The translations under genes and the position numbers were made by a program. Positions 4,161-34,072 of a DNA stretch of 44,355 bases are shown here, one piece after another. The notes under the pieces are model-generated. The model was not told where the DNA came from and ran no database searches. It was given only the letters and a program-made list of their open reading frames with translations. The stretch is from an uncultured Nitrososphaeraceae archaeon (GTDB taxonomy: Archaea > Thermoproteota > Nitrososphaeria > Nitrososphaerales > Nitrososphaeraceae): the NCBI GenBank assembly GCA_963765895.1, contig CAVXZB010000022.1, positions 1-44,355 on the forward strand, in the 5' to 3' direction. Numbering within the stretch: position 1 is the first letter of the stretch; each line of letters begins with the position of its first letter.

Positions 4161-5662
4161 TCATCTATTGTATTTCAGTACAGACGCTGGTCTTTTCCTG
4201 AGCGCCAAGGCAAATACAACTGAGACTGCTGACAAAAACCCCGCTGTAAGGAATACGAGATTATATGATCCAGGTGTTGGGTATGACCCACCGAATTCAG
4301 CCGTTCTCTGATTTTCCATGTATATCCCTGCTAGAGCCGGGCCTATTGCCATACCTATAAACAACAAGAGAGCTCCCACTCCTACTGATATGCCAGTGAA
4401 CTCTTTTGGCGATGACGATACGACCATGTTCCATGTTGCAGTTATTGTGAGCGACAGTCCACTGGCAATTACAGCCAAATTTGCAGATACTGCAAACTCA
4501 GTTGAATGAAAAGTAAGCAATCCAATGGCACCGATCAGACTGATTATCCCACCAATGATCGTTGGCTTCATGCTTCCTACTCTATTTATAATAAATGGAG
4601 TAATACTTGCAAACACCAGGAACATTACCATAAATGGTAGCTGAACGTTTGCAGCCTCTTCAGAATTCCCTCCGAATCCTAACGGGACTGGGCTCCTAAC
4701 CAGCTGGACTATGGATGGATATATCATGAACATCGTAATCCCGGTGGCTATCAGTATAATGTATGATCGCAGAAGGATCTTGTGTCTCAGTAACTTCAAG
4801 TCAAAGAAAGGTGGTTTGGCCCTTCTCTCTATAATAACAAAGACGATTAACGAAATTGCTGATGTTACGAATGCACCAGCGATCTGCGCAGATTTTCAGA
4901 GTTTATACCTATCTGTATGAGTGTAAGCGCAATTATGAATGAGGATATCGTGACAGAGAGGGCTGGTACACCTTTAATGTCTATAGAAAACGACGTCTGT
5001 TTTTTGTTCAAGGTACTTTCTGGACTCTTGACAGTAATTGCATGATCTGGCTTCCTATTTTCTTTTACAAATATGGCGATCATTAGCGTAACCAAGGCAG
5101 AGAAAGGAACTATAGCCAAGAAAGTTGAATGCCATCCAAAATTCTGAATAATGCTAGCTCCTGTCAAGAGACCGACTACTGAGCCTGCAGAATATGCCGA
5201 TCCGAATACTCCTACAGCAATGGCAAGTTTGGCCGGTGGAAATGTATCTCGAAGAAGACTAAAAGCAGCTGGGACTGCGGCTAAACCGAAGCCTTGAATT
5301 ATCCTCGTGACGAGCAAAAATGATATGTTATATGCGAAGCCTCCAGCAGTGAGTCCGGCTATATATATAATAAGTAACATGAGCAATACTTTCTTTTTCC
5401 CGTAAAGATCAGACAGTCTGCCTGCGACAGGAGTCATTACCGCAGCCACAATCAAGTAGGCACTGAATATCCATGCAGCGGTTCCGTACGGAATTTTAAA
5501 CTCCTTTATGATCTCCGGGATTGCAGGTAGAAGCATGGTCTCGGAGAAAAAAACTGTCAGAAGGGTGCAGCTAAGTATTGCCAGAGTGAACCACGCACGA
5601 TGGCTGACAATAATTCCTTCCTTGCTATCTTCCATTCCTCCAATGTTACCTTTTCTTGTCAT
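4161..5662 (-). pseudogene. MFS transporter (DHA2-like), split by a frameshift near 4880
   Basis: Motif A GRLSDLYGKKK and RIIQGFG in the 265-aa ORF; the C-terminal TM helices are in the 212-aa ORF. Confidence 0.88.
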
Positions 5663-8431: not shown

Positions 8432-8764
8432 TTATTTTGTCCCTCGCTATAGATCTTTGCAAGTTTCTCGCGAAATTTTTGTTCTGCTCTTGTTTGTTGA
8501 AACATTGCCATCCATTGTTTTTCCATTTTTTTAATAAGAGCATCAGCTGCCCTTATCGGTTGCTGGAGTGAATCTTGATTTCATTTCCTTTTTCAATTTT
8601 TCCGCAATCAATTCGATATTCACCTCAATAAATGCCGTTTGCCGCATCATCTCCTATCCTGCTCTCTGTCATTCTGCTTTTCATTCTTCCTTCTGTGTTT
8701 ACACGTATTGAGCATGTGCTGCCTGATGCGTGACATGGACGAGGACGCTCCATCTTCTGTTCAT
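8432..8764 (-). pseudogene. Decayed small helical protein divergent from HxlR
   Basis: Fragments VNIELIAEKLKKEMK / AADALIKKMEKQWMAMFQQTRAEQNFREKLAKIYSEG, with stops and frameshifts. Confidence 0.5.
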
Positions 8765-11269: not shown

Positions 11270-12217
11270 GACTATGTAGAAAACATCATCAATATTACAA
11301 GATTAGTCAGTCTATGCATATTGTAGGTGATACATCTAAATGATAACTCTCTGTTCTGCATTCTAGTCAATCTAGACATAAGATTCTCTCCAAATAGTCG
11401 TTTTATAACTGATATTATGGTTTCATCTTTGTTTCGTTGATTGTACAGCAATTTGGAGTAACCACGCTTCATCTGCTTTCTGTACTTACCATGTGTTCTC
11501 CACATCGGTACATGTTCATATCGAGCAGGAATAATACTGAATGCATGTAAGTCCTCTCTTACGAGAAGGTGATTATCTTCACTATCGTAACCCTTATCAG
11601 CTGTAACTACAGATAATGGAAGAATATTTGATGTCCTTGTTATAATTGGCCTGAAATCTACATTATCATGCCTTGTTGGAGCTCGTCTTATCTTAATTGT
11701 ACATATGATTTGTTGTAATACATCTACTCCAATAGATAATTTCGCATATTTTCTTCTCAATTCTGTTCGATCAGTATAATATTGTGATGCATGAGTTATC
11801 TTAAATCCTGTTGAATCTATTCCTGCAAAGATATGCTTGGTACCACTAATTACAATGAATGACGAAATTATCTTTTCAAGCAATGAATTATTAATTCTAT
11901 CTGTAAACTTTTGCAATGTTGTAAAATGAGGAATACGTGACAACCGTAGAAATGACCTTAGGTAATAGGCTTCAATTAACCACTCGACAAACATTCTATA
12001 ACTCTTACCTTCATACTGTCGTATAGCAACTAGAACTATGTGCTGCCATATTGTAAATATGTGATTACTTTTCCTGTTAGAAAATAGAGGAATCCTTGCA
12101 TGCTTCAAAACACGGAACATAGTACCTGCAAGTCTGACGTACATTGATTCTTTCAATAGACTATTGGTATTATACTCTTACAAAGCTTTGACTGTATGAG
12201 ATGGTTTCTACACAGCC
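11270..12217 (-). mobile_element. IS5-family-like insertion sequence (948 bp) with imperfect 18-bp TIRs
   Basis: Left GACTATGTAGAAAACATC (11270-11287) versus revcomp of right GGCTGTGTAGAAACCATC (12200-12217): 15/18 match. No clear target-site duplication. Confidence 0.85.
11272..12156 (-). CDS. DDE transposase (IS5/IS4 superfamily)
   Basis: IDSTG, ADKGYDSE and YNQRNKDETIISVIKR DDE motifs; PHFTTL. The stop codon lies inside the TIR. Confidence 0.93.
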   Translation of the reverse strand: MKESMYVRLAGTMFRVLKHARIPLFSNRKSNHIFTIWQHIVLVAIRQYEGKSYRMFVEWLIEAYYLRSFLRLSRIPHFTTLQKFTDRINNSLLEKIISSFIVISGTKHIFAGIDSTGFKITHASQYYTDRTELRRKYAKLSIGVDVLQQIICTIKIRRAPTRHDNVDFRPIITRTSNILPLSVVTADKGYDSEDNHLLVREDLHAFSIIPARYEHVPMWRTHGKYRKQMKRGYSKLLYNQRNKDETIISVIKRLFGENLMSRLTRMQNRELSFRCITYNMHRLTNLVILMMFST

Positions 12218-13356: not shown

Positions 13357-13821
13357 GTGTATCGTTATTACAGAACTTCGTATAGTAAAAATATGAGTAA
13401 CAGAAAAAATGTTGTGACTTACAGCATTCCGTTAGGGATTCTAACATCGCTTACCATATTCAGTCCTCTAGGACAACAGACCTATGCTGCTGCACATACA
13501 TCTGGGTATAACCATGGATGTTCAGATGCGCAAATTTCTGACCCATCTGAAAGATACATCAACCAACCAGACAAGCGATCAAGTTCTCATAGTGACGCAT
13601 TTATGCAGGCATATAATGAAGGATTTGATGCGTGTTCGGGTAATTCAAATAGTAATGACAATTCTCATTCTTCAGATAGTGGAAGTGGGTCGCATTCAGG
13701 TTTAGTAGATACAGCATGCCGCTTGATAAATAATCATCCCACAGCTGCAGCATTACTTGGACATACATTAGGCCTTGGAATAGGGGGTCAGCTAGCACAA
13801 GGATATTGTGCGCTAAGATAG
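13357..13821 (+). CDS. Secreted hypothetical protein (SGYNHGC...YINQP...FMxxYxxGF domain, Ser/Asn linker, Gly/Ala-rich Cys-flanked tail)
   Basis: Signal-peptide-like region, probable start ATG 13393. The domain resembles the decayed gene at 17340-17661. Confidence 0.7.
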   Translation: MYRYYRTSYSKNMSNRKNVVTYSIPLGILTSLTIFSPLGQQTYAAAHTSGYNHGCSDAQISDPSERYINQPDKRSSSHSDAFMQAYNEGFDACSGNSNSNDNSHSSDSGSGSHSGLVDTACRLINNHPTAAALLGHTLGLGIGGQLAQGYCALR

Positions 13822-14236
13822 GCAATACTCCTTTACAATTTCAGGTGAATGCATCAACCTCTCCTCATCTTTTCAGTTTAGAGAAATCATATACAGCGTA
13901 CATAAATTTTATCACCATAGTGGGACTGTTAGTCTCTATACCTAGGACGCAGCATTTTTCGATAATATTTGTAATCTCGCGCTGCATATCGTTAACACAA
14001 ACACCATTTCAAAGATGAGTATGCTTGACTTTACGGGAATGCGATATTATTCGATTGTATAGAGTCACCCATATTAACAGAATTGAATACACATAGTACA
14101 CTTAGACTACTATGCTACCATCTATAGATATCATCATTTGTACTGTAAATCCAGTACAAGTTTTTGATAGTCTTGAGAGTGAGTTTGGTAGAGCAGCTAA
14201 TCTTTAATCAAATAGAGTTGTTACTGTGTTGCAACT

Positions 14237-14407
14237 AAGACATATTTGACGTATCTGACACTTGAGCAGCAGATAGTCTCTAATCACATAAACTACTAGT
14301 ATATGGTAACTATCTGACGTATCTGACTTATAGATACTTGTATGGCAAACAGTCTTTAATCTTATGCAGCTCCCACTTCTATCTGACATATCTGACATAT
14401 CTGACAT
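14237..14407. repeat. Three clusters of 9-bp-periodic (ATCTGACRT-like) repeats, iteron-like
   Basis: aagacatat-ttgacgtat-ctgacac (14237), atctgacgt-atctgact (14312), (atctgacat)x3 (14381). Confidence 0.8.
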
Positions 14408-14600
14408 CGTACCCTGGATAGACTCTCTTTGACTGGCTATGAGAGAAGTTACAGTCAAGTTCCGAAACGATACAAATCTTTTGAAATATGGATCGAGCCG
14501 GAGAGCTTTGAATATGACGAGTATTGTCGAACTCTGCGGTACAGGGATGTGTGAGCTGGGTCTATATATTAGAAAAAGTACCTTTGTCTCTGTTATACTA

Positions 14601-15113
14601 TTAACATCCTTCGAGTATCTTCAATGCATCTTTTTCTCCTTGTTCAATTAGCATCTTGATAGTATCATAAGTAAAGTCTGTAGGCTTGCTAGAATAATCT
14701 ACTTCACGACCAGTACTTGGATCAACGTCGTTAGAACGCTCTATTCTCACTACGCTATGTAGTTTAAATTTCCCTTTGATTAGATCTTTATACTTTTTTC
14801 TCATATGGTTCAGGTTATTACTTGTTCCTTCTGTTATCATTAGAAGACACTCTAATTCCTTTTGAAATGCTGCACCTTCACTTGTATTGACAATGTGGCT
14901 CTTGAGAGCCTTTAATTTACGAATTATTCCCATAGAGTCATTTAATGTGTTTTCCAATTCATTATAGCCAGTTGCTAGATGTGCCACCATTTCATCGTAA
15001 CGAGAATCTCTGTCTAAGAACTGGATGCCAGTAGTTCTATTCTGAACTTCATCGTAGTCTGTTGGAACGTTATCTGCTATAGAGGGATTCACATTTACTA
15101 TATACACATCTAG
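14601..15113 (-). pseudogene. C-terminal fragment resembling thaumarchaeal patatin-like phospholipases
   Basis: LDVYIVNVNPS...VPTDYDEVQNR...VVRIER...DFTYDTIKMLIEQGEKDA; the catalytic N-terminus is absent. Family recalled, not searched. Confidence 0.55.
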
Positions 15114-15415
15114 ACGCCAATATGTGAGCCAGAATGTCCTATAAAATACTCCGAATAATCGGTACATCCACGATCGGAAATAGTAGTTTTTACAAATCTC
15201 CTAAAGGAATGAAGAGTAATTTGTCTTCGTTGTTCGTTACCATCTTCCTTATCACCTTTACTCATCCTATCTAATGTCATTGCAAAGGATTTTGCTATAT
15301 CATCATATGGACCATCTGGATTGGGTTTTCTTTTGGTCTAGTAAACAGCAAATAGTAAATCGATTCCTTCTTTAAAAGGTATTCTGTATTCTGTTATTAT
15401 TTTTCCATCTCGATT
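15114..15415 (-). pseudogene. Tyrosine recombinase catalytic-domain remnant
   Basis: Manual translation ...FAVY*...RRQITLHSFRRFVKTTISD...SEYFIGHSG/TYWR shows HxxR, GH and the catalytic Tyr. One stop and one frameshift. Confidence 0.85.
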
Positions 15416-20764: not shown

Positions 20765-21158
20765 GCTCATTTTCAGGATAAAACCTGCCATAAATTGGTA
20801 GATATGATAGTCATTACAGCCCATAGCACGGTAGGATGGCCATGTATACTAGTTTTAATTTTCTTTAAGATTCTGTTCAACGCCCTATCAAGTTTATCTT
20901 TCGAAACAAAGTCCTTTAGATCTATATCTATAATTAGAAAAGTTGGTGGAGTTCTATTAATGCCATCGTATTTAGTAAAGGAAGGATAAGCATTGATTCT
21001 ACAATCTTCATAGTTTGATGCCTAAAATATTCAAGGACTTCCTTTATGTTGAACACTTCTTTCTGGTAACCAAGAGCTTTGGTCATTATATTTCTTGGGA
21101 AAATGGGCTCCTGTAAATGTGATATTATGAAGTACAGGTTCTGCTCTAATTCCTGACT
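20765..21158 (-). pseudogene. N-terminal remnant of a second AEP primase, paralogous to 24274-24642
   Basis: SHLQEPIFPRNIMTKALGYQKEVF / NYEDCRINAYPSFTKYDGINRTPPTFLIIDIDLKDF...GHPTVLW / YHIYQ aligns by eye with the AEP at 24.3-24.6 kb. Frameshifted. Confidence 0.9.
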
Positions 21159-21161
21159 AGT

Positions 21162-21208
21162 AAGGGGAAAATTTCTTTCTGTGAGGGGGTGAAAGAAAAA
21201 CTACCCTT
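21162..21208. repeat. Palindromic site A: 18-bp imperfect arms around an 11-bp asymmetric core
   Basis: aaggggaaaatttctttc TGTGAGGGGGT gaaagaaaaactaccctt. Confidence 0.9.
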
Positions 21209-22982: not shown

Positions 22983-23594
22983 GTCCACTAAAATTATTTT
23001 TATGCTTGGTAGTCATGCCTTCAAAGCTTTCGTCAGTCTAGATATCCAAATCTAATTAAATTAGCTTTATTATTTAGCATTGCTCACACGTCCTTTAGGA
23101 TTATCCTCTCTATAATAATTGATTTAGAGTTTGCTCGTATAAGATTATAATCGAATCGCACGGTAGTGCGGGTGCAGAAATATTTTTTTATCTGCTTGCC
23201 ATTAGATCTGTAGTCGGATTTATTTGATCTGTCATGTCACTCCAGTCTAGTCCGGAAACAATTGGTTTATTGTATCGATAAAAACCAAGAATTAAGATTC
23301 CAATTTCAGAATACACAATTAGACTTGTTATGACTTAAGAGTCTTGTTCTAGAAAACATCCGAATAGTTCTAATCTATAATGGACATTTTTCGTGTGCGC
23401 CTCATCCTTGGCATTTCTACCATCATACCTGGCATCAGCTATACATCCCATGTCTCAAATTCAAAAAGGCTTTTAATGTGATATGCTGCATATCTCTTAA
23501 TAAAAGAGGCTATTTCCGATGTAATTACACAGGATCTGATATCTTGTCTGATTTAGTCTGATTCGAATTACTAATACGGTGGTTCACTATCTAT

Positions 23595-24642
23595 CTAAAG
23601 TTTAGCCAGCAGATTGTACAAGTACGTATTTTCTGTCTTTAATTTCCCCATACTTCTCGGTAGATATCCATTCCTCTTTGCAGAATCAATATTATATTTG
23701 ATCACTTGATACGCATTAAAGTCTAATCGCCTTAATTGGCTACATCTATCAAGCCAATCCTTTATTATTTTAGAAGCCCTCATCAGTATAACACTTTTTA
23801 ATATTAATAAGGTAGGGTGCTAGGATGCACCATACCACGAATTTCCTATAATCAGATAGTGGAGTCTGTAATAGTTTTTCGATCCACTTGATCTTGTTCG
23901 AATTTATGGTCGTTTGGACGTACGCCATTTTGCTATTCGCTTGCTTACGTTGTTCAATCTTTTCGTATATGAGCCATCTTCTAAAATTGCGCAATAGATA
24001 ATTTATCGCGGGCCTTTGACCATCCCACATTTGCATGATTGTAACTTCCTGCGCGCATTTTGAATTTATAGTCCCTGGAACTCTAACCAAACACGTGCTC
24101 ACTGTAGGATTATGTTGAGGATCTCCTTTTTTGTTAGCTAGGAACTCTTCTGCAAATTGCATAAATTTAGATGTCAGATCTTTTCCATCAGGTTCTCTCA
24201 ATCTTGCAAATCTATCTTCTTCTTCGAGAACGAATCCATCCATCGGCTGATATATGTGGTAACCATTACCAGTTCACAATACAGTAGGATGGCCTCGTGT
24301 AGCCATGCTGATTTTCCTAAGGATTTTATTTAATCCTCTGTCAAGTTTTTCCCTTGAATTATCAAAATCCCTAAGATCTAAATCCATCATCACGAAACTA
24401 GGCCCGACTCTATTGATACCCTGATAATTAGTAAATGAATGGTAGGCGTTAATATGACAGTCTTCATAGTCCGAGGATTTGAAATAATTCAATACCTCTT
24501 GCTTACTGTACACTTCTTTCTGATATCCAAGCCTTTTGGTCATAATCTTTCTCGGAAAAAGAGGTTCTTGAAAATGAGATAAAATAAAGTCTACATTTTC
24601 AGATATTACTTCTGGATGTAATGTGTGATTACTCGTCGTCAT
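23595..24642 (-). pseudogene. Archaeo-eukaryotic primase (AEP) fused to a PriX-like C-terminal domain; in-frame TGA at 24274-24276 and frameshift near 23780
   Basis: DLD motif I; (W>*)TGNGYHIYQP motif II; VRVPGTINSK; C-terminal WIEKLLQTPLSDYRK...ILAPYLIN...IIKDWLDRC is PriX-like. Confidence 0.85.
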
Positions 24643-27147
24643 CCTGATTATTTTCCTCTGCATCGTTGTCCTCATCGTCCTCGTATTCCACGGCCATCCT
24701 ACTCTTTACCATCTCCACAGCATAGTCTATTCTATTATCCATTGAGCCTTTACCGATGGGTAATTTCAATAGCTCTCTCTATGGTTTGCCAGAAGATGAT
24801 TACCTAGGTCAAATTCTATAAGATTTCTGTAATCACACCAGGGGCAAGATATCAGGGGCAGTTCTACTTTGGATTTATCTTCTCCATTTATGGCCTGTCT
24901 TGGAGATGCTGAAGCATCGTTATTATGTAATCCTGCGACACTTGCGACAGATGCGACACATTTAGAAGACGGAGATACATCTTTTTCATCAATTCTCTTA
25001 CTACCTGGGTTCGGATTCACTAATGGCGCTGAGGTTTCACTATTATCATTTATTTCTGCGACACTTGCGACAGATGCGACACATTTAGAAGACTGACATG
25101 CCTGTTTTTCATTAACACTAGTACCTAATTTATCATTACTATCTATAGAACTACTATTACAAATCACATCTGTACTGGGATCTTTATCATATTCATGTTT
25201 TGAATGTTCAGCAATTGACTCTATTTGAGTTGCAGCGGCTTCTACTTCAGTCTGAAGATTAACTTTAGTGGATGGTGGGACAGATTCTGATGTTAAATTA
25301 CCATCATCTATTGGCCCATTTTGCACGTCTCCGTTCTTAAAATGTGTCGCAAGTGTCGCGTCTGTCGCAGGTTCCGGTTTATTAGTCGGATCCAGGATTG
25401 CTATCTCGTCTGGAACATCATAATAATGAATTACTAGTCTGTCTAGAACTTCTTTTGAAAATTTAAGCCCCATTTTGGTCTCGCTACCACTTCCTACTTT
25501 GAATGGTTCAGCTTTGAATTTTGACATATAAATAGATGTTATATATTTGTGCGAAATAGACCCGAATTCTACACTGTAAAATGAATTTGGCTTAAATGCG
25601 TTGTCCCGACCGTTCATCACGGTTTTGGCTTCAGTCCATATGTCTTCATTATAAAATATGTAGGATTTACTCTCATCCGGTCCATCACTATTTACATTTT
25701 CCTTTCCAATTAAGTTATTGATTACTTCTCGTAACTTCGATTCAATTGAATTTCTCTTAAGTTCATTTCTTTCGGATACGATTTTAGATAGTGCGCACCG
25801 AATTTCTTCTAATGCTATAGGAGCATCATTTGGACTGTTAAATAACCGTAGTAGTGGTTTAGTAAGCTCAGCACTTCGATGTTTAACATTCAAATTAAGA
25901 TCAGCGATTACATCATTGTGATGAATCATTCGGAATGCGAATAGCAATTTGCGCAAATTGATTATTTCGTCGTGAAGCGGTTTGAACTTTGGATCGCCCG
26001 CATATTTTATTACATCCTTTATATTATATTCGACATCGCCAACTATGAACCCAAACACGAATGACCTATCCAGAATTCCTTTGATTTTCTTGTAGTCTGG
26101 TAGCTCCTCCATTGCAAGCCACTTCGTGCAATATGTCAGATACGATTCCTGTGTTCGGCCATACGTCAAGTCTACTTTAGGTACGTTTCCACCTGATGTG
26201 TAACCTGTCTTTAGGATTTTCTGCTTCTCTCTATCGTATCCAATATCCTCTGCCTCATCTTCTGCGATAGTCCCTTGACATTCCTCAGTATCCCCTAAGA
26301 ATGTGAAATAATTAGGCGCACTTGCTGATGTTACATAGAATACACGATACCCTAGCAGTTTGTATACAAGCAGTGCCGAATTTTTCCCACTTCCATTATC
26401 CCCTACAAAAATATTATAGTGCAGTGTTGGAAATTTGTCCTGGAAATAGCTGTAGATAGTATCAGCTGAGAAGATGGAGATATGATGATCTTCAGTATTT
26501 ACATATTTTCCATATACGAGTTTGGTTTTTAAATACAGCGAATCGAAGGTTTCATTTCGCGCTCTTTCAAGGTATTGATTAAGCTCGTCAGGCGATTCAA
26601 ATATATAGGGTAAGGGATTCTGGGAATCAAAATTATCTGCTGGATGTAGTACCTTATCACGTCTATCTATTTCAGTTTGATACTTTGGCTGTCCATTTTG
26701 CTCTAACATTAGGAATGCAGTTTGACCATCTTTGAATACTATCAATTCGTGTAATGGTAACGTTCCATTTGCAGTATATTTTCTAATCTTGACTTTCTTG
26801 AGGCGTTTCGTATTCTCATCTTCATTGTTAAGCTGATCTTCTTGCCCATCTTTTGTTAAACTCACAATTTCATAATTATTATTCAATACATCTTCTATGA
26901 GATTGATATGTGGAGCGCTTACTCCAATTTGCTCTAACTTTTTAACAAGAGTTTTTACAGTCTGGTTCCATTTAGGACCCTTACAAACTGGAGATACAAT
27001 CTGTTTTTCCTTATAAACATGATTTAGTGTTAGCAGTAGACAATGAGTCCGTTTATCCTTCCTAAAGGACGTCACTATCTGTTCTTTGGTAATCTCGTCT
27101 GTTAATTCCAGATCTATAAAATTATCTGCGTTAGAATATGGTTTCAA
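24629..27147 (-). CDS. Large P-loop NTPase-like replication protein with C-terminal C2H2 Zn finger (last ~50 aa frameshifted at an AG repeat near 24775)
   Basis: Walker A-like GDNGSGKN; Walker B-like IAEDEAE; ILDRS Arg-finger-like motif; CPWC...H...H finger. The tail LLKLPIGKGS...DDDE* overlaps the primase start. Confidence 0.75.
24933..25370. repeat. Iteron-like array: three blocks of three 9-bp-spaced GCGACA motifs (two identical 38-bp direct copies, one inverted block)
   Basis: ctgcgacacttgcgacagatgcgacacatttagaagac at 24933-24970 and 25056-25093; inverted aaatgtgtcgcaagtgtcgcgtctgtcgcag at 25340-25370. Confidence 0.93.
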
Positions 27148-27157
27148 TTACAAGACC

Positions 27158-27325
27158 TCAGTTTGTACTCTCTTGAAATTTGGAGATGCAATCATTGCAA
27201 AGTAATAACGAAATTACTTTCTGAGGTCCAGCTCTTACTTTAATCTCGTTTGTAGCTTTTGCAAAGCATTCCTCTGCTTCACATATAAGGTTATTAATCT
27301 CCGAGTTGTAGTCATAATTATCCAT
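27158..27325 (-). CDS. 55-aa Zn-finger protein (not in ORF track)
   Basis: MDNYDYNSEINNLICEAEECFAKATNEIKVRAGPQKVISLLLCNDCISKFQESTN*; aggaga upstream; ends 10 bp before the P-loop ORF. Confidence 0.8.
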   Translation of the reverse strand: MDNYDYNSEINNLICEAEECFAKATNEIKVRAGPQKVISLLLCNDCISKFQESTN

Positions 27326-27348
27326 GGGGAATCATCTCCTATTGGCTT

Positions 27349-27397
27349 AAGGTTTCACTTGATTGCAGGGTCTCAACTCTACAATCAAGTGAACCTT
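27349..27397. promoter_or_regulatory. Strong ~22-bp stem-loop between the RHH and Zn-finger genes
   Basis: aaggtttcacttgattgcagggt ctca actctacaatcaagtgaacctt. Confidence 0.8.
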
Positions 27398-27400
27398 GAT

Positions 27401-27541
27401 TTACTTTTTTCGTTCCAACGTGTACCGCCCTTCAAGTATTCTTAATACATACCGGCTGCGTGGAACATCCCCACGTTCTGAACCTATCTGTCCTATGATT
27501 TGCCTAGGGAGCGAAATCCCTAATACAAGATTTGACTTCAT
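27401..27541 (-). CDS. 46-aa ribbon-helix-helix (CopG-like) protein (not in ORF track)
   Basis: MKSNLVLGISLPRQIIGQIGSERGDVPRSRYVLRILEGRYTLERKK*: beta strand (GISLP), helix, then RSxxxxxIL second helix. Confidence 0.75.
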   Translation of the reverse strand: MKSNLVLGISLPRQIIGQIGSERGDVPRSRYVLRILEGRYTLERKK

Positions 27542-27598
27542 ATTTAATATATATAGTAAGTTTAATAAATCTGTCATCCAAACTACTACGGATAATTT

Positions 27599-28792
27599 TT
27601 GAGATGGGATGAGAAAGTTGATTCATCGATCATAGAATCCTTAGGGAAGGACCAACTGCATACTGAGGGTCTATATGAACAAGTGTGTTCTAGGTATAGA
27701 GGGATTTCATTTGACGCATTTAATAGGCATCTGAAAAAGTTAGTTGCTGACGGATATATCAAAAAATCATCTATCGGAATAGGCAAAAAAGCTTCCCACT
27801 GTCTAACAGAAAAAGCTAGACGGAGTTTACGAATTGGAACATTTGATATTAAATCCAAAAAAGGGAGAGTCAGACGTGGTGTAAATAGTGAACGAATAAA
27901 ATGCCAGAAACTATATGTTTTGCTGCTACTCTTTCGTCACCGAACTATTTACAGATTTGACACAGAAATAGAATTCGATAATTTCCTAACTCAATTTAAA
28001 TTAACTAGTGAGCAACTTATTCAAACCCATTCTCCCAATTTTATACATATATCTGGAGATGGAAGCTATCAATATTTAGGAACTGCTTGGAAATCCCCTA
28101 ATGGGGATATTGAGATAGTAGAGATTAGTAAACATGATATAACACATAGAAAAGATTCAACTGGAAACCTTCGCCGACTGACACAACCTGAATTTTATTA
28201 TTCTTGTAGCGTTAAGGGATTAACTGAAAGAGAGGTTCTAAATTCAGATTTACGTCTAGCATCTTCGTCATTTAGAATTACAAGAGAGGAAGCAGAGGAA
28301 GCATTTCGTATATTACATAAAGAAAATCTCCTCAAACCGATCGCCGTATATAAGAATGAAGTCTTATACGCGGTATCAGATGAACGGTCGGATGAGTTCT
28401 TACAAGATTGTCTTGAAGTCTATGAATTCGTTTCTGGCGGAATAATAGATATTTGGGGTTCCATTAGTCGGCCTAACCCCCAGGAAGTACGCTGGCTTGA
28501 ATTTTTTATAGGTAAAGAAGGTACCGACAAAATTAGAAATCATGCTTACGAAACTAAAAAAGCCAAACGTGGTATGACAACAGATGATTTTTATGAATGG
28601 TTAAAATGGTGGAGACACTCCCTTAAGAAATCCAAGGACGATATCGACGCTATGGTAACAGATCTCAAAAAGAAACATGAATTGACGATACAGAAATATC
28701 CCTATCCTTCAAATGACGTCTTGGAACTTGTTTATCCAAATTTTTTGGAGAATACATTTCAAATAACAAAAAAGAAGCAGAAATCCAATTAG
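27599..28792 (+). CDS. Hypothetical protein with N-terminal winged-helix DNA-binding domain
   Basis: ISFDAFNRHLKKLVADGYIKK...HCLTEKA wHTH pattern; intact 397-aa ORF divergent from the RHH operon. Confidence 0.75.
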   Translation: MRWDEKVDSSIIESLGKDQLHTEGLYEQVCSRYRGISFDAFNRHLKKLVADGYIKKSSIGIGKKASHCLTEKARRSLRIGTFDIKSKKGRVRRGVNSERIKCQKLYVLLLLFRHRTIYRFDTEIEFDNFLTQFKLTSEQLIQTHSPNFIHISGDGSYQYLGTAWKSPNGDIEIVEISKHDITHRKDSTGNLRRLTQPEFYYSCSVKGLTEREVLNSDLRLASSSFRITREEAEEAFRILHKENLLKPIAVYKNEVLYAVSDERSDEFLQDCLEVYEFVSGGIIDIWGSISRPNPQEVRWLEFFIGKEGTDKIRNHAYETKKAKRGMTTDDFYEWLKWWRHSLKKSKDDIDAMVTDLKKKHELTIQKYPYPSNDVLELVYPNFLENTFQITKKKQKSN

Positions 28793-28809: not shown

Positions 28810-28981
28810 TTAAAATTCTTTTTCCATCAATGCGTCTGGCTTGACTTCCGTCAACTTGGGATTGTGCTGTATCATTGGTGTAATCTGACTGAATCGTTGA
28901 TTAGTCTCGTCACGAATAGTCTGTAAATCCTGTTCATATTTTTTGCTTCATCGCCTGCATTTCTCTATCCTTTTCGGGCAT
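28810..28981 (-). pseudogene. Orphan C-terminal tail of another integrase
   Basis: YEQDLQTIRDETNQRFSQITPMIQHNPKLTEVKPDALMEKEF* parallels the neighbouring integrase tail MIRHNPKLAHVKPESLLKK. Confidence 0.8.
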
Positions 28982-29220
28982 TTTAGCCTCAATACCTCCT
29001 CTAGTACAGTATAATCTAGAAATCTAGATATTCCTTGCATTTTGACTTCGATTTCCTCAGACTCTAGCATAATAGATGCTTGCAACATGGCCTAAGAATT
29101 AGTTACTATACTGCACTAGCCTCATCTGAGATCGTCATTTTAAAGCGCTATAAAAGGTGTAGTGTAATTCTCTTCCTTACCATTAAATCCCTATCCCAGA
29201 GTTAGATCTATCCATAATAA

Positions 29221-30388
29221 TTAGCTGATACTTTTCTTTAGCAGTGATTCCGGCTTAACATGTGCCAGCTTAGGATTGTGTCGTATCATCTGCATCATCT
29301 GGGCCATTTGGTTTTGAACGGCCTCTAAATCCTTCCTGTGTCGCCTTTCAAGTTCCATTATCTGATCATTTTTGAACTGCAATTCAGTTACCCTCTTGGC
29401 TAAGCGATGCTCTTCGTTTATAGTTAGGTCATTGATTACCGCGGCATAACCTAGAGCTTTATCGCTTCCTTCTAGTAGTTCTTGATCAGTTGGTTTGAAA
29501 TAAGATTTGGTTAGACCTGATCTATGACCCATTACGTATTCTGAGTAGAGAGGATTCATACCAGCGTTTATGCAAATGGTTTTGAAGAATTTACGAAAGC
29601 CATGTGTTTGCATTAGTCGGTACGCTCGCTTGCGATCTGCTGTTGGTGCTCTTACTCCAGTGCGGTCTAGTAGTCTATGAATCATGAACGCGATAACATA
29701 CGCCGATACCGGTTTCGGTCTATTGACCTCGGTGACTGTATCAAACTCTATTCTAAACAGGGGAGAATTGGGTTTGAGTTGTTCGCCCATCCGCTGCCGC
29801 CATTTTAGGTATTGGTCTATGTACTTGGTACATTCTGGTGTACAGAACGTTGTGTATTGCTCCTGCTCTTTCTTGTATGCGGAAATTTTGTATAGCTGGT
29901 ATTTGTCTATTCTTGTCAAGTCTCTTATTCTTAGGTGTTGTAACGCACCGCGGCGTAGACCAGCAGAGCACATTATCAATACGATGCATTTATCACGTAA
30001 TTGAGGCAGCATCAATCAGTAGTTTTATCTGCTCTAGTGAGTAGGGTTCATCCTCTACTACGCTATAGTGTGCTGCCTTGAATTTCTTTAGCCGCTTCCA
30101 GTGTAGTATGAAATTATTCATCTCGTAGAAATGCACGATAGGAGCGATGTAGCTGGATACTGTAGCCGGTGCTAGCTTACGGTCACGCCTTAGGTGTACT
30201 ATGTAATCTCTTATCGTGCTTTCTAATTGGCTAATGGGAATTAGTAGCATGTCGTTGTGAGTGGGTCTTTTACAATACTGCATAAAATACGAGAATTTTA
30301 GGTTGTACTCCTTTCTAGTTATATCGCTGTTAATTGAATTGATAAAATTACTGTATGCCTCTGCTTCTTGTGGTTGGAGCTGGTCCAT
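29221..30388 (-). CDS. Tyrosine recombinase/integrase, split by one frameshift near 30005
   Basis: N-terminal SAM-like domain (LAPATVSSY); catalytic GLRRG, K, HGFRK, MGH and SYF all present. Confidence 0.92.
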
Positions 30389-33053: not shown

Positions 33054-34072
33054 TTATTTAATAGGCTTTATTACTGCCTTAAACCGTACATTCCCATTAG
33101 CTACTTGATCATATGCATTGCTAATTTCTTCTAATGGAAATATTTCAGTCATTACTCTTACTTTACCTTTTGCAACGTAGTCTAATGCCTCATAGAGGTG
33201 TTCTCTATCATTTTGTGTAGAACCTATGATGCGGGCACGTTTGAATAAGATCTCTGGAGAAATTGTAAAAGGCTCTGTTGAGACTCCCATTAAAACAAAG
33301 CGTCCGTCTGGTCTAAGACCTTTAATTGAGTCTGCAGTTGCCTTGTAAGAATTACTTGTAGCAAGTATTACATCTGCTCCACTACTACTACCGCCGCCAG
33401 ACTGTCATGTCCTTCTTTTAATAATCCTTCTCCATTTGCAACAACACTATCAGCTCCGAGTTTGTACGCTAATTCTTCCTTATCTTTTGAGTGTGTGACA
33501 GCAATTGTTTCAAAACCAGCAGCTTTAGAGTATTGAATTCCAAGGTGGCCTAGCGCTCCTATACCAACGATCGCTACACGTTCATGTGGCCTGGGATCAG
33601 CAGATCTCAATCCACTATATACAGTATAGCCCGCACAGAATATTGGTGCAGCTTGCTCATATGTCAATCCGTTTGGTAGTAATTGAGTAGCGTCAGCATA
33701 AGCAACCATATATTCAGCATGACTTCCTGCAGTGCTAATGCCAGTTGCTATCTGGTTTGGACAGAATGATAATTTGCCACGCTGACACCACTCACATCTG
33801 CCGCATGTTGATTGTAGCCAAGGAACTCCTACTCTATCGCCAACTTTTCGTGTAGTTACACCTTCGCCCAAAGCAACAATTTCTCCAGCAGGCTCATGGC
33901 CTATGGTATATGGAAACTTTACTCCTAGCCTACCTCTAGTAATATGAACATCGGTGTAGCATATACCACTAGCATGAATTTTTATAAGTACTTGATTGGC
34001 GCCAGCCTGTGGAGTAGGAACTTCTTTAACTTCCCACTTTGCATCTACTGATGGGATGACAGAAGATAACAT
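33054..34072 (-). pseudogene. Zn-dependent alcohol dehydrogenase (AdhP/CAD-like), frameshifted near 33390
   Basis: GICYTD, GHE, CGRCEWC...C, FCAGYTVY, GIGALG; C-terminus GNVRFKAVI in the 78-aa ORF. Confidence 0.92.

Follow-up and report, generated by a model that had tools for sequence, protein, structure and literature searches.

Where would a small mobile element of a soil archaeon start its own replication, and could the site lie inside the gene for its replicative helicase? The question is raised by a stretch of 44,355 nucleotides (nt) from an uncultured Nitrososphaeraceae archaeon (assembly GCA_963765895.1, contig CAVXZB010000022.1, positions 1 to 44,355 of the forward strand; the whole stretch is hereafter called the window). 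In it, a P-loop protein of 793 amino acids is encoded on the minus strand (24766-27147) within what is best explained as a small integrated element of about 6.6 kb, composed of an integrase, a helicase/initiator and a PrimPol. An original prediction, made from the letters of the DNA, had noticed three blocks of a short motif inside this gene and had taken them for the replication origin, or initiator-binding array, of the element. These arrays are genuine and far beyond chance expectation; their conservation is at the DNA level, and they are found across the family. We consider it probable that they constitute the iteron origin of a self-loading helicase, of the type of Rep in the staphylococcal pathogenicity islands (SaPIs), embedded in the helicase/initiator gene itself, and very likely that they are protein-binding sites of some kind.

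The hexamer GCGACA has 14 matches in the 44-kb window, nine of which fall within the three blocks, between 24934 and 25369, at a strict period of 9 bp. Two blocks are in direct orientation (starts at 24935, 24944 and 24953, and at 25058, 25067 and 25076, plus strand) and one is inverted (25345, 25354 and 25363, minus strand). The pattern GCGACA-N3-GCGACA-N3-GCGACA is matched three times in the window and never in 100 dinucleotide-preserving shuffles. The repeat unit proper is the heptamer TGCGACA, followed by two variable bases. The left array, on the N-terminal side of the encoded protein (25345-25369, minus strand), contains three heptamers and reads TGCGACA-GA-CGCGACA-CT-TGCGACA; opposed to it are a first right array, on the C-terminal side (25057-25081, plus strand), with three TGCGACA heptamers, and a second right array (24934-24958, plus strand), which is a duplicate of the first. 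The two direct copies (24933-24970 and 25056-25093) are identical across 38 nt at an offset of 123 nt, and this core is nested in an 82-nt direct repeat that is 83% identical, with every mismatch outside the core. The segments 24932-24975 and 25328-25371 form an inverted repeat of 44 nt, 80% complementary, and each of these arms consists of three units and an inner flank of about 17 nt (CATTT[TA]A..ACGGAGA). The whole candidate origin thus comprises the two 44-nt inverted arms, the internal duplicate array and the spacer (24932-25371).

All the arrays lie within the 793-amino-acid open reading frame (ORF). Translation of the minus strand gives PATDATLATH for the inverted block and KCVASVASVA for both direct blocks (ATDATLAT and VASVASVA for the arrays themselves), in agreement with the earlier observation that a single motif encodes CVASVASVA in one orientation and ATDATLATH in the other. 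Since 9 bp make three codons, repetition, duplication and inversion of the arrays can all take place with the frame intact. A low-complexity linker had been proposed as their location, and an AlphaFold2 model built from a 100-sequence alignment bears this out: it predicts a confident body (residues 1-594), a disordered segment (595-761, encoded by 24865-25365 on the minus strand) with a predicted local distance difference test (pLDDT) score below 50, and a confident C2H2 zinc finger (762-793). The arrays begin directly after the folded helicase body, in the predicted linker or at its N-terminal edge, where the left array extends with its outermost unit to 25369, in residue 594.

In order to see whether this arrangement is a property of the family, we collected relatives at two levels. 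In a set of 8000 scored candidates, at least 297 proteins are relatives at E 0.001 or below, and the named ones among the matches listed are hypothetical proteins of Nitrososphaeraceae or Nitrosopolaris. A scan of genome contigs gave 16 loci (numbered with the prefix L below), all from Nitrososphaeraceae or Thermoproteota metagenome-assembled genomes (MAGs), which together with the window make 17 sources. The DNA-level comparisons cover the window and these 16 loci, and the protein-level classification covers 100 homologues. Three of the 17 sources could not be scored for both arms: L005, where the contig ends after the left array, L006, where the gene is truncated, and L016, a fragment of 32 residues. 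In all 14 loci with a complete linker the same layout is found: the left array has 2-3 units, 68-407 nt of spacer follow, and 1-3 right arrays come next in the opposite orientation. The ORF runs through the arrays in the window and in all 13 other two-armed loci, and the extra blocks add 24-41 amino acids to the protein. There are nine heptamers in the window and about 5 to 13 in the related loci.

The unit itself varies between loci, with seven variants in all, but within each locus one variant is common to both arms, which answers in the affirmative the earlier question of whether homologues carry their own motif in both orientations. TGCGACA is found in the window, L001-L005 and L008, TGCGTCA in L007, L009 and L013, and the remaining variants in one locus each: GTGACA in L012, GTTACGC in L010, GGACGC in L011, ATGACAC in L014 and TGCACGG in L015. 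Across the window and the 16 loci, exact triple arrays of any 6-mer with a 9-bp period occur 25 times in 35,895 nt of helicase genes versus once in 214,474 nt outside them, and control periods of 6, 7, 8, 10, 11, 12, 15 and 18 bp give 0-1 arrays inside the helicase genes and 0-2 outside.

The inner flank, which lengthens the inverted repeat to 44 nt and is more widely shared than the heptamers, lies at 24959-24975, 25082-25098 and 25328-25344 in the window and in the same place in L001-L009, as a partly conserved CATTT[TA]A[GA]AA..ACGGAGA; its possible roles are those of a second site or of the point where melting begins. Other observations on the relatives concern the state of their genes. 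Many protein homologues are forms of 500-600 amino acids that end shortly after the left array, and several helicase genes are interrupted by frameshifts or in-frame stops and keep their arrays (L009, 4888-5047; L013, 7271-7273; L014, 2324-2514; L008, about 8557-8621), so that many of the MAG copies may be decaying, or the contigs may contain errors. One relative of 654 amino acids, P0110, has a PrimPol domain (PF09250) fused to the helicase, the sole such case among the matches listed.

What is selected in these arrays, the DNA or the peptide? In a codon alignment of six loci, the third base at four-fold-degenerate sites of conserved residues is invariant in 10 of 10 positions in the arrays versus 7 of 54 elsewhere in the gene, which is not the free synonymous variation expected of a conserved peptide. 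In the right arrays serine is encoded by either TCT or AGT, a switch that parallels the GA and CT spacers found in the left array. If both sides are read from one DNA motif, GCG-ACA-GAY on one side stands against TCT-GTC-GCA on the other, so that ATD should be paired with SVA, ASD with SDA and VTD with SVT. Both sides could be called in 49 of the 100 homologues, and 48 of these pairs are as reverse complementarity predicts (AT-VA in 19, AS-DA in 14 and VT-VT in 15), with one mixed and none discordant. The frozen third bases, together with the inversion in 14/14 loci, indicate conservation at the DNA level, as originally proposed.

The same comparison also shows where within the arms this selection acts. 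When the left arm is compared with the reverse complement of each right block, 340 of 399 heptamer positions agree (85%, an underestimate due to imprecise register in four distant loci), whereas complementarity in the 2-nt spacers is limited to 40 of 114 positions (35%, close to chance). For the inner flank of 17 nt, 144 of 323 positions agree (45%, where 25% is expected by chance). Since the heptamers are complementary, the spacers are not, and 1-3 right blocks face each left block, selection appears to act on each heptamer and not on a continuous stem.

The protein that encloses the arrays has no Pfam, NCBIfam or PHROG family (E up to 0.01-0.1), a profile search against PDB sequences gave one irrelevant match (E 0.066), and tblastn found no match to it in 72,556 plasmid records or 50,697 phage records. 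The Walker A motif GDNGSGKNS and an acidic AEDE motif are invariant across 100 sequences, and the predicted fold is more informative than the sequence. Against the PDB it matches MCM, the helicase region of NrS-1, SCCmec Cch (5dgk), E5 of monkeypox virus (MPXV) and SaPIbov1 Rep (8tch), with E from 2e-6 to 4e-5, and the BFVD matches (Foldseek, E 1.5e-15 to 1e-7) are primase-helicases from viruses, belonging to the Toprim, DUF927, D5 and PrimPol types. In the ESM Atlas the matches are unnamed clusters, with a 25% share of DUF3631, which we regard as a lead only. These matches of the model support a helicase fold of the primase-associated, self-loading replicative type.

The closest analogue is found in the SaPIs. 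According to the relevant passages of PMC9371898, SaPI origins have six to twelve short iterons (5-7 nt), which follow directly on the rep ORF and are divided equally between the two sides of an AT-rich centre, with at least two iterons per side pointing in opposite directions, and Rep is the replicative helicase itself, whose C-terminal winged helix binds the iterons without ATP. In SaPI5, the iteron is described in the corresponding part of bioRxiv 10.64898/2026.10.17.759575 as the 7-mer TGCAACC; three adjacent C-terminal domains of a single hexamer hold three successive copies, which are separated by dinucleotides. As far as these passages go, the arrays of the window have the same 7+2, 9-bp geometry as SaPI5, and are also alike in the number of iterons and in their opposed sets. 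The likeness extends to the primase encoded alongside the helicase, to the integrative nature of the element and to the presence of SaPIbov1 Rep and Cch among the fold matches. In contrast, the host here is an archaeon, and no sequence similarity is detectable (Pfam, NCBIfam, PHROG, PDB). The SaPI origin starts after the stop codon, whereas here it would lie inside the ORF, though its position relative to the helicase body is the same, and the spacer exceeds that of the SaPIs in length, at about 260-400 nt in most of the loci. Finally, the SaPI iterons are bound by a winged helix, and residues 376-594 of our protein match winged-helix proteins only at E 0.28 or worse.

The original prediction had looked for the analogue in lambdoid origins, and of this likeness the position of the iterons inside the initiator gene stands, while lambda O is not the nearest counterpart. 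The lambdoid origin (ori), made of iterons and an AT-rich tract, lies in the middle of the coding sequence of the initiator O, and extra iterons add 13 amino acids to the protein in Shiga toxin (Stx) phages, as stated in the relevant passage of PMC7466680, a study in which lambda iterons were also recoded with the peptide preserved. The common feature is that iterons and AT-rich tract fall in an inter-domain segment of the initiator's coding sequence, whereas homology to O is absent here (no Pfam match) and the arrays are opposed around the tract. Lambda iterons are longer and internally symmetric, they all point the same way and the AT-rich tract flanks them on one side only; O is not a helicase but recruits DnaB through P.

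The fold search also places the protein among the primase-associated P-loop helicases of mobile elements, such as phage P4 alpha (with ori/crr), pRN1 ORF904, NrS-1 and the poxvirus D5/E5 proteins, with the difference that here, in the loci examined, the PrimPol has its own gene downstream. The repeats bound by P4 alpha are short and lie in both orientations, and the pRN1 and P4 origins are intergenic. For Thermococcales plasmids, origins have been predicted in intergenic regions (PMC2926602, in the passage concerned). The cryptic integrated elements of Thaumarchaeota described by Krupovic et al. 2019 (PMC6563490) are, in the pertinent passages, small, integrase-bearing and equipped with PrimPol and superfamily 3 helicase replication genes, and thus share with the present element the host group, the size type, the integrase and the replication genes of mobile elements; the passages of that paper on origins, iterons and repeats describe no replication origin or iteron array. 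Our literature searches found no such arrays described for Nitrososphaera or for archaeal integrated elements. The SaPI origin design and the lambda-type embedding are each already known, and what is new, as far as our searches show, is their combination, the archaeal host and the unannotated helicase family. A chromosomal-type origin, with an Orc1/Cdc6 gene next to inverted origin recognition boxes (ORB), does not fit either: no Orc1/Cdc6 was found by Pfam among 26 ORFs of the window, including all those of at least 80 amino acids between 20193 and 30388, and Orc1 appears among the fold matches of the helicase only distantly (rank 50).

An origin of this design should also contain a tract that opens easily. 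The least stable 40-bp duplex of the helicase gene (25126-25165; nearest-neighbour dG, that is, free energy, of -40.9 kcal/mol) lies between the opposed arrays and is a candidate unwinding element. In 10 of the 14 loci, the least stable 40 bp of the gene of about 2.4 kb falls in the spacer, which makes up about 10-20% of the gene in those ten loci and about 4-22% overall.

Layout and DNA-level conservation support the reading of the arrays as an origin or initiator-binding array, and we infer that the helicase binds the heptamers and that replication starts at the arrays. We propose that, after excision of the element, helicase subunits would read the TGCGACA heptamers, each of 7 nt and set off by a 2-nt spacer, and that, with three heptamers on one side and three to six opposed ones on the other, one ring would be loaded on each side of the spacer. 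The least stable AT-rich tract would then melt between the rings, the PrimPol encoded downstream would prime and host polymerases would extend. The same origin DNA would double as the code for a disordered tether joining the helicase body to the zinc finger and the acidic tail. A more elaborate and rather doubtful extension is a coupled circuit, in which heptamer-bound rings would block transcription and translation of the gene's 3' end, with its zinc finger and acidic tail, and of the overlapping PrimPol gene, and in which the passage of transcription over the arrays would in turn free the origin or activate it. The 9-bp, three-codon period would then be a dual code, under selection for protein binding as well as for the reading frame, and helicase, PrimPol and embedded origin would together make a minimal, self-contained replicon in Nitrososphaerota, whose initiator-iteron pairs diversify from lineage to lineage.

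Several points weigh against an embedded origin of a self-loading helicase. The template modelling (TM) scores of the fold matches are low (about 0.2-0.38), because the model has several domains. A candidate DNA-binding domain is not singled out: a fold search with residues 376-594 places winged-helix proteins on top at a best E of 0.28, with none at E 0.001 or better, and these are also the best, non-significant matches of the region 495-590, which has a beta/alpha pattern. Neither does the divergence of each domain within and between iteron classes pick any single domain, and this comparison is confounded by phylogeny, as are its individual values: the AT and VT classes differ most in the N-terminal 110 residues, at 0.20 identity, and next in the C-terminal beta/alpha region (0.38 identity). 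The zinc finger is absent from three distant loci (L012, L014 and L015). With regard to the unwinding element, the stability minimum lies outside the spacer in 4 of the 14 loci (L001, L010, L011 and L015), the spacer taken as a whole is only a little richer in AT, that of the window is barely less stable than the remainder of the gene (mean dG per 40 bp of -48.8 versus -50.4 kcal/mol), and that of L011 is more stable than its gene. In the relatives P0048, P0054, P0070 and P0038, A and T forms of the heptamer are mixed in the arrays within one clade (AS-AT-AT in a left array facing VA-VA-VA in the right one, for example) and the arms are not always mirror images. Judging from these sequences, A or T is probably tolerated at position 5 of the heptamer, which means that not every heptamer difference is a change of specificity, and TGCGACA and TGCGTCA need not differ in this respect. 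In addition, the arms can pair in RNA (minimum free energy -127.7 kcal/mol, z -5.64 against 100 shuffles), so a structural role is thermodynamically possible, and the window copy of the element, from the state of its genes described below, is probably no longer active.

The arrays could also be binding sites, for the helicase or another protein, with no part in initiation, serving for example as a centromere-like partition site, in copy-number control or in incompatibility, or acting as a roadblock or operator for the 3' end of the helicase gene and the PrimPol. Selection on DNA, unit by unit, fits this equally well, plasmid iterons often control as well as initiate, and the arrays are just upstream of the overlapping PrimPol gene. 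We nevertheless find this unlikely, since the conserved module is limited to integrase, helicase, PrimPol and small ORFs and has no genes resembling ParA/ParB, a pure operator would have no need of 6-12 sites spread over two arms, and opposed arrays round the least stable tract, placed immediately behind a replicative helicase body, have the arrangement of an origin. Quite unlikely, in turn, is that the inverted arms form a long-range stem in mRNA or single-stranded DNA with a regulatory effect on how the C-terminal module is translated, on transcript stability or on priming. The folding result just given and the complementarity of the arms, kept through seven variants as a conserved helix would show, speak in its favour; a helix, however, has no need of an internal 9-nt periodicity, and would leave this periodicity, the copy number and the spacer pattern unexplained. 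It would also have to accommodate spacers that are near chance in complementarity when the heptamers are not, one left block facing up to three right ones, mixed A/T units that disrupt pairing, and 68-407 nt of translated sequence enclosed in the loop; and a search of 23500-28000 against Rfam gave only a chance lncRNA match, far below threshold.

That the repeats were selected as tripeptide repeats of the linker, with the DNA symmetry incidental, would agree with the conservation of ATDAT.. and ..VASVASVA in many homologues, but it is highly improbable given the invariant third bases, the serine codon switch that matches the left-array spacers, the peptide pairs that follow reverse complementarity in 48 of 49 cases and the predicted disorder of the region. 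Still less credence can be given to arm-type integrase sites of a phage-like attachment site (attP) inside the helicase gene. In a lambda-type attP, clustered arm sites in opposite orientation surround an AT-rich core, and a tyrosine integrase is indeed encoded 4 kb away; integration, however, would part the arms to the two ends of the element, whereas here both arms are in one ORF, including in loci flanked by host genes on both sides. A miniature inverted-repeat transposable element (MITE), or another palindromic insert, was also considered and rejected.

An embedded iteron origin would have consequences beyond this locus. The literature searched describes no replication origin for a mobile element of ammonia-oxidising archaea, and to our knowledge these organisms are still without plasmid vectors and routine genetics; the compact module of helicase, PrimPol and candidate origin is a concrete candidate for a shuttle replicon. 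For a family of at least 297 members that has no curated annotation, naming the cis-site and the role of the protein would annotate a class of soil-archaeal elements. The arrays are also an unusually clean natural case of overlapping codes, in which the same DNA serves as an array on both strands and as codons, under a reverse-complement rule that can be traced through evolution. If the proposal is true, the self-loading-helicase origin design of the staphylococcal islands extends to archaea.

Turning to the neighbourhood, the helicase/initiator gene (24632-27147, minus strand) is placed between the integrase and PrimPol genes, with the arrays upstream of the overlapping PrimPol gene. ORF clustering over the 17 sources defines a conserved module with a tyrosine integrase (10/17), the helicase and a PrimPol/PriX-like protein of about 350 amino acids (11/17), in the order integrase, sometimes a small upstream ORF, helicase and then PrimPol directly downstream, often overlapping, with host genes on the flanks. 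No partition (ParA/ParB-like) or packaging genes are found in this module. The 55-amino-acid ORF upstream of the helicase in the window is unrelated to the small upstream ORF family of the other loci, and a search for attachment-site direct repeats around the element gave none that is convincing. [quoted passage not shown] It adjoins the helicase in only 3 of the 17 sources and is thus not the conserved partner of the family; it has no usable Pfam, NCBIfam or PHROG match, and the wHTH label has its only support in a sub-threshold HxlR match in one homologue.

None of the three core genes of the element is intact in the window. The helicase gene has a frameshift near 24775, with loss of the last 48 residues or so, although the acidic tail ELLKLPIGKGS...DDDE is still encoded in another frame. 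The PrimPol gene, with a PriX-like helix-bundle domain (23770-24675, minus strand), lies directly downstream of the helicase and is a pseudogene, as an in-frame stop (24274-24276) replaces the W of PTVLWTGNGYHIY and the C-terminal, PriX-like end is truncated. The tyrosine integrase (29221-30388, minus strand) is split into two overlapping ORFs by a frameshift near 29993-30015. Because of these lesions the copy is probably inactive now, although its nine heptamers are perfect or near perfect. Fragments of related genes lie close by: 20818-21188 (minus strand) encodes residues 16-140 of a second PrimPol of the L004 type, at 53-65% identity, and 28816-29022 (minus strand) a second integrase C-terminus with 53% identity to the L002 type. 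The two PrimPol copies are also reflected in a 109-nt repeat (21025-21133 and 24482-24590, 72% identical). To judge from these remnants, their sequence suggests repeated integration and decay at this site.

Elsewhere in the window, several host genes look split or truncated (4161-5662, 33368-34072 and other places), with a major facilitator superfamily (MFS) transporter in two ORFs and an alcohol dehydrogenase that keeps only the start of its second domain. The coding density is low for an archaeon, and together with the split genes this points either to a pseudogene-rich genome or to an assembly with indel errors. An insertion sequence with a DDE transposase is present at 11272-12156. A second array with a 9-bp period, unrelated to helicase genes, is found at 14188-14410, between ORFs (13357-13821 and 14601-15167) with no Pfam match. 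Its unit is TATCTGAC[A/G], in three blocks of 2+2+3 copies that are about 68-69 nt apart and share one direction; a 22-nt repeat (..CAGNTAGTCTTTAATC), recurring every 76 nt, is interleaved with the array. Its pattern of two units is matched four times versus 0.06 expected, and the array might be another iteron-type site or a regulatory array.

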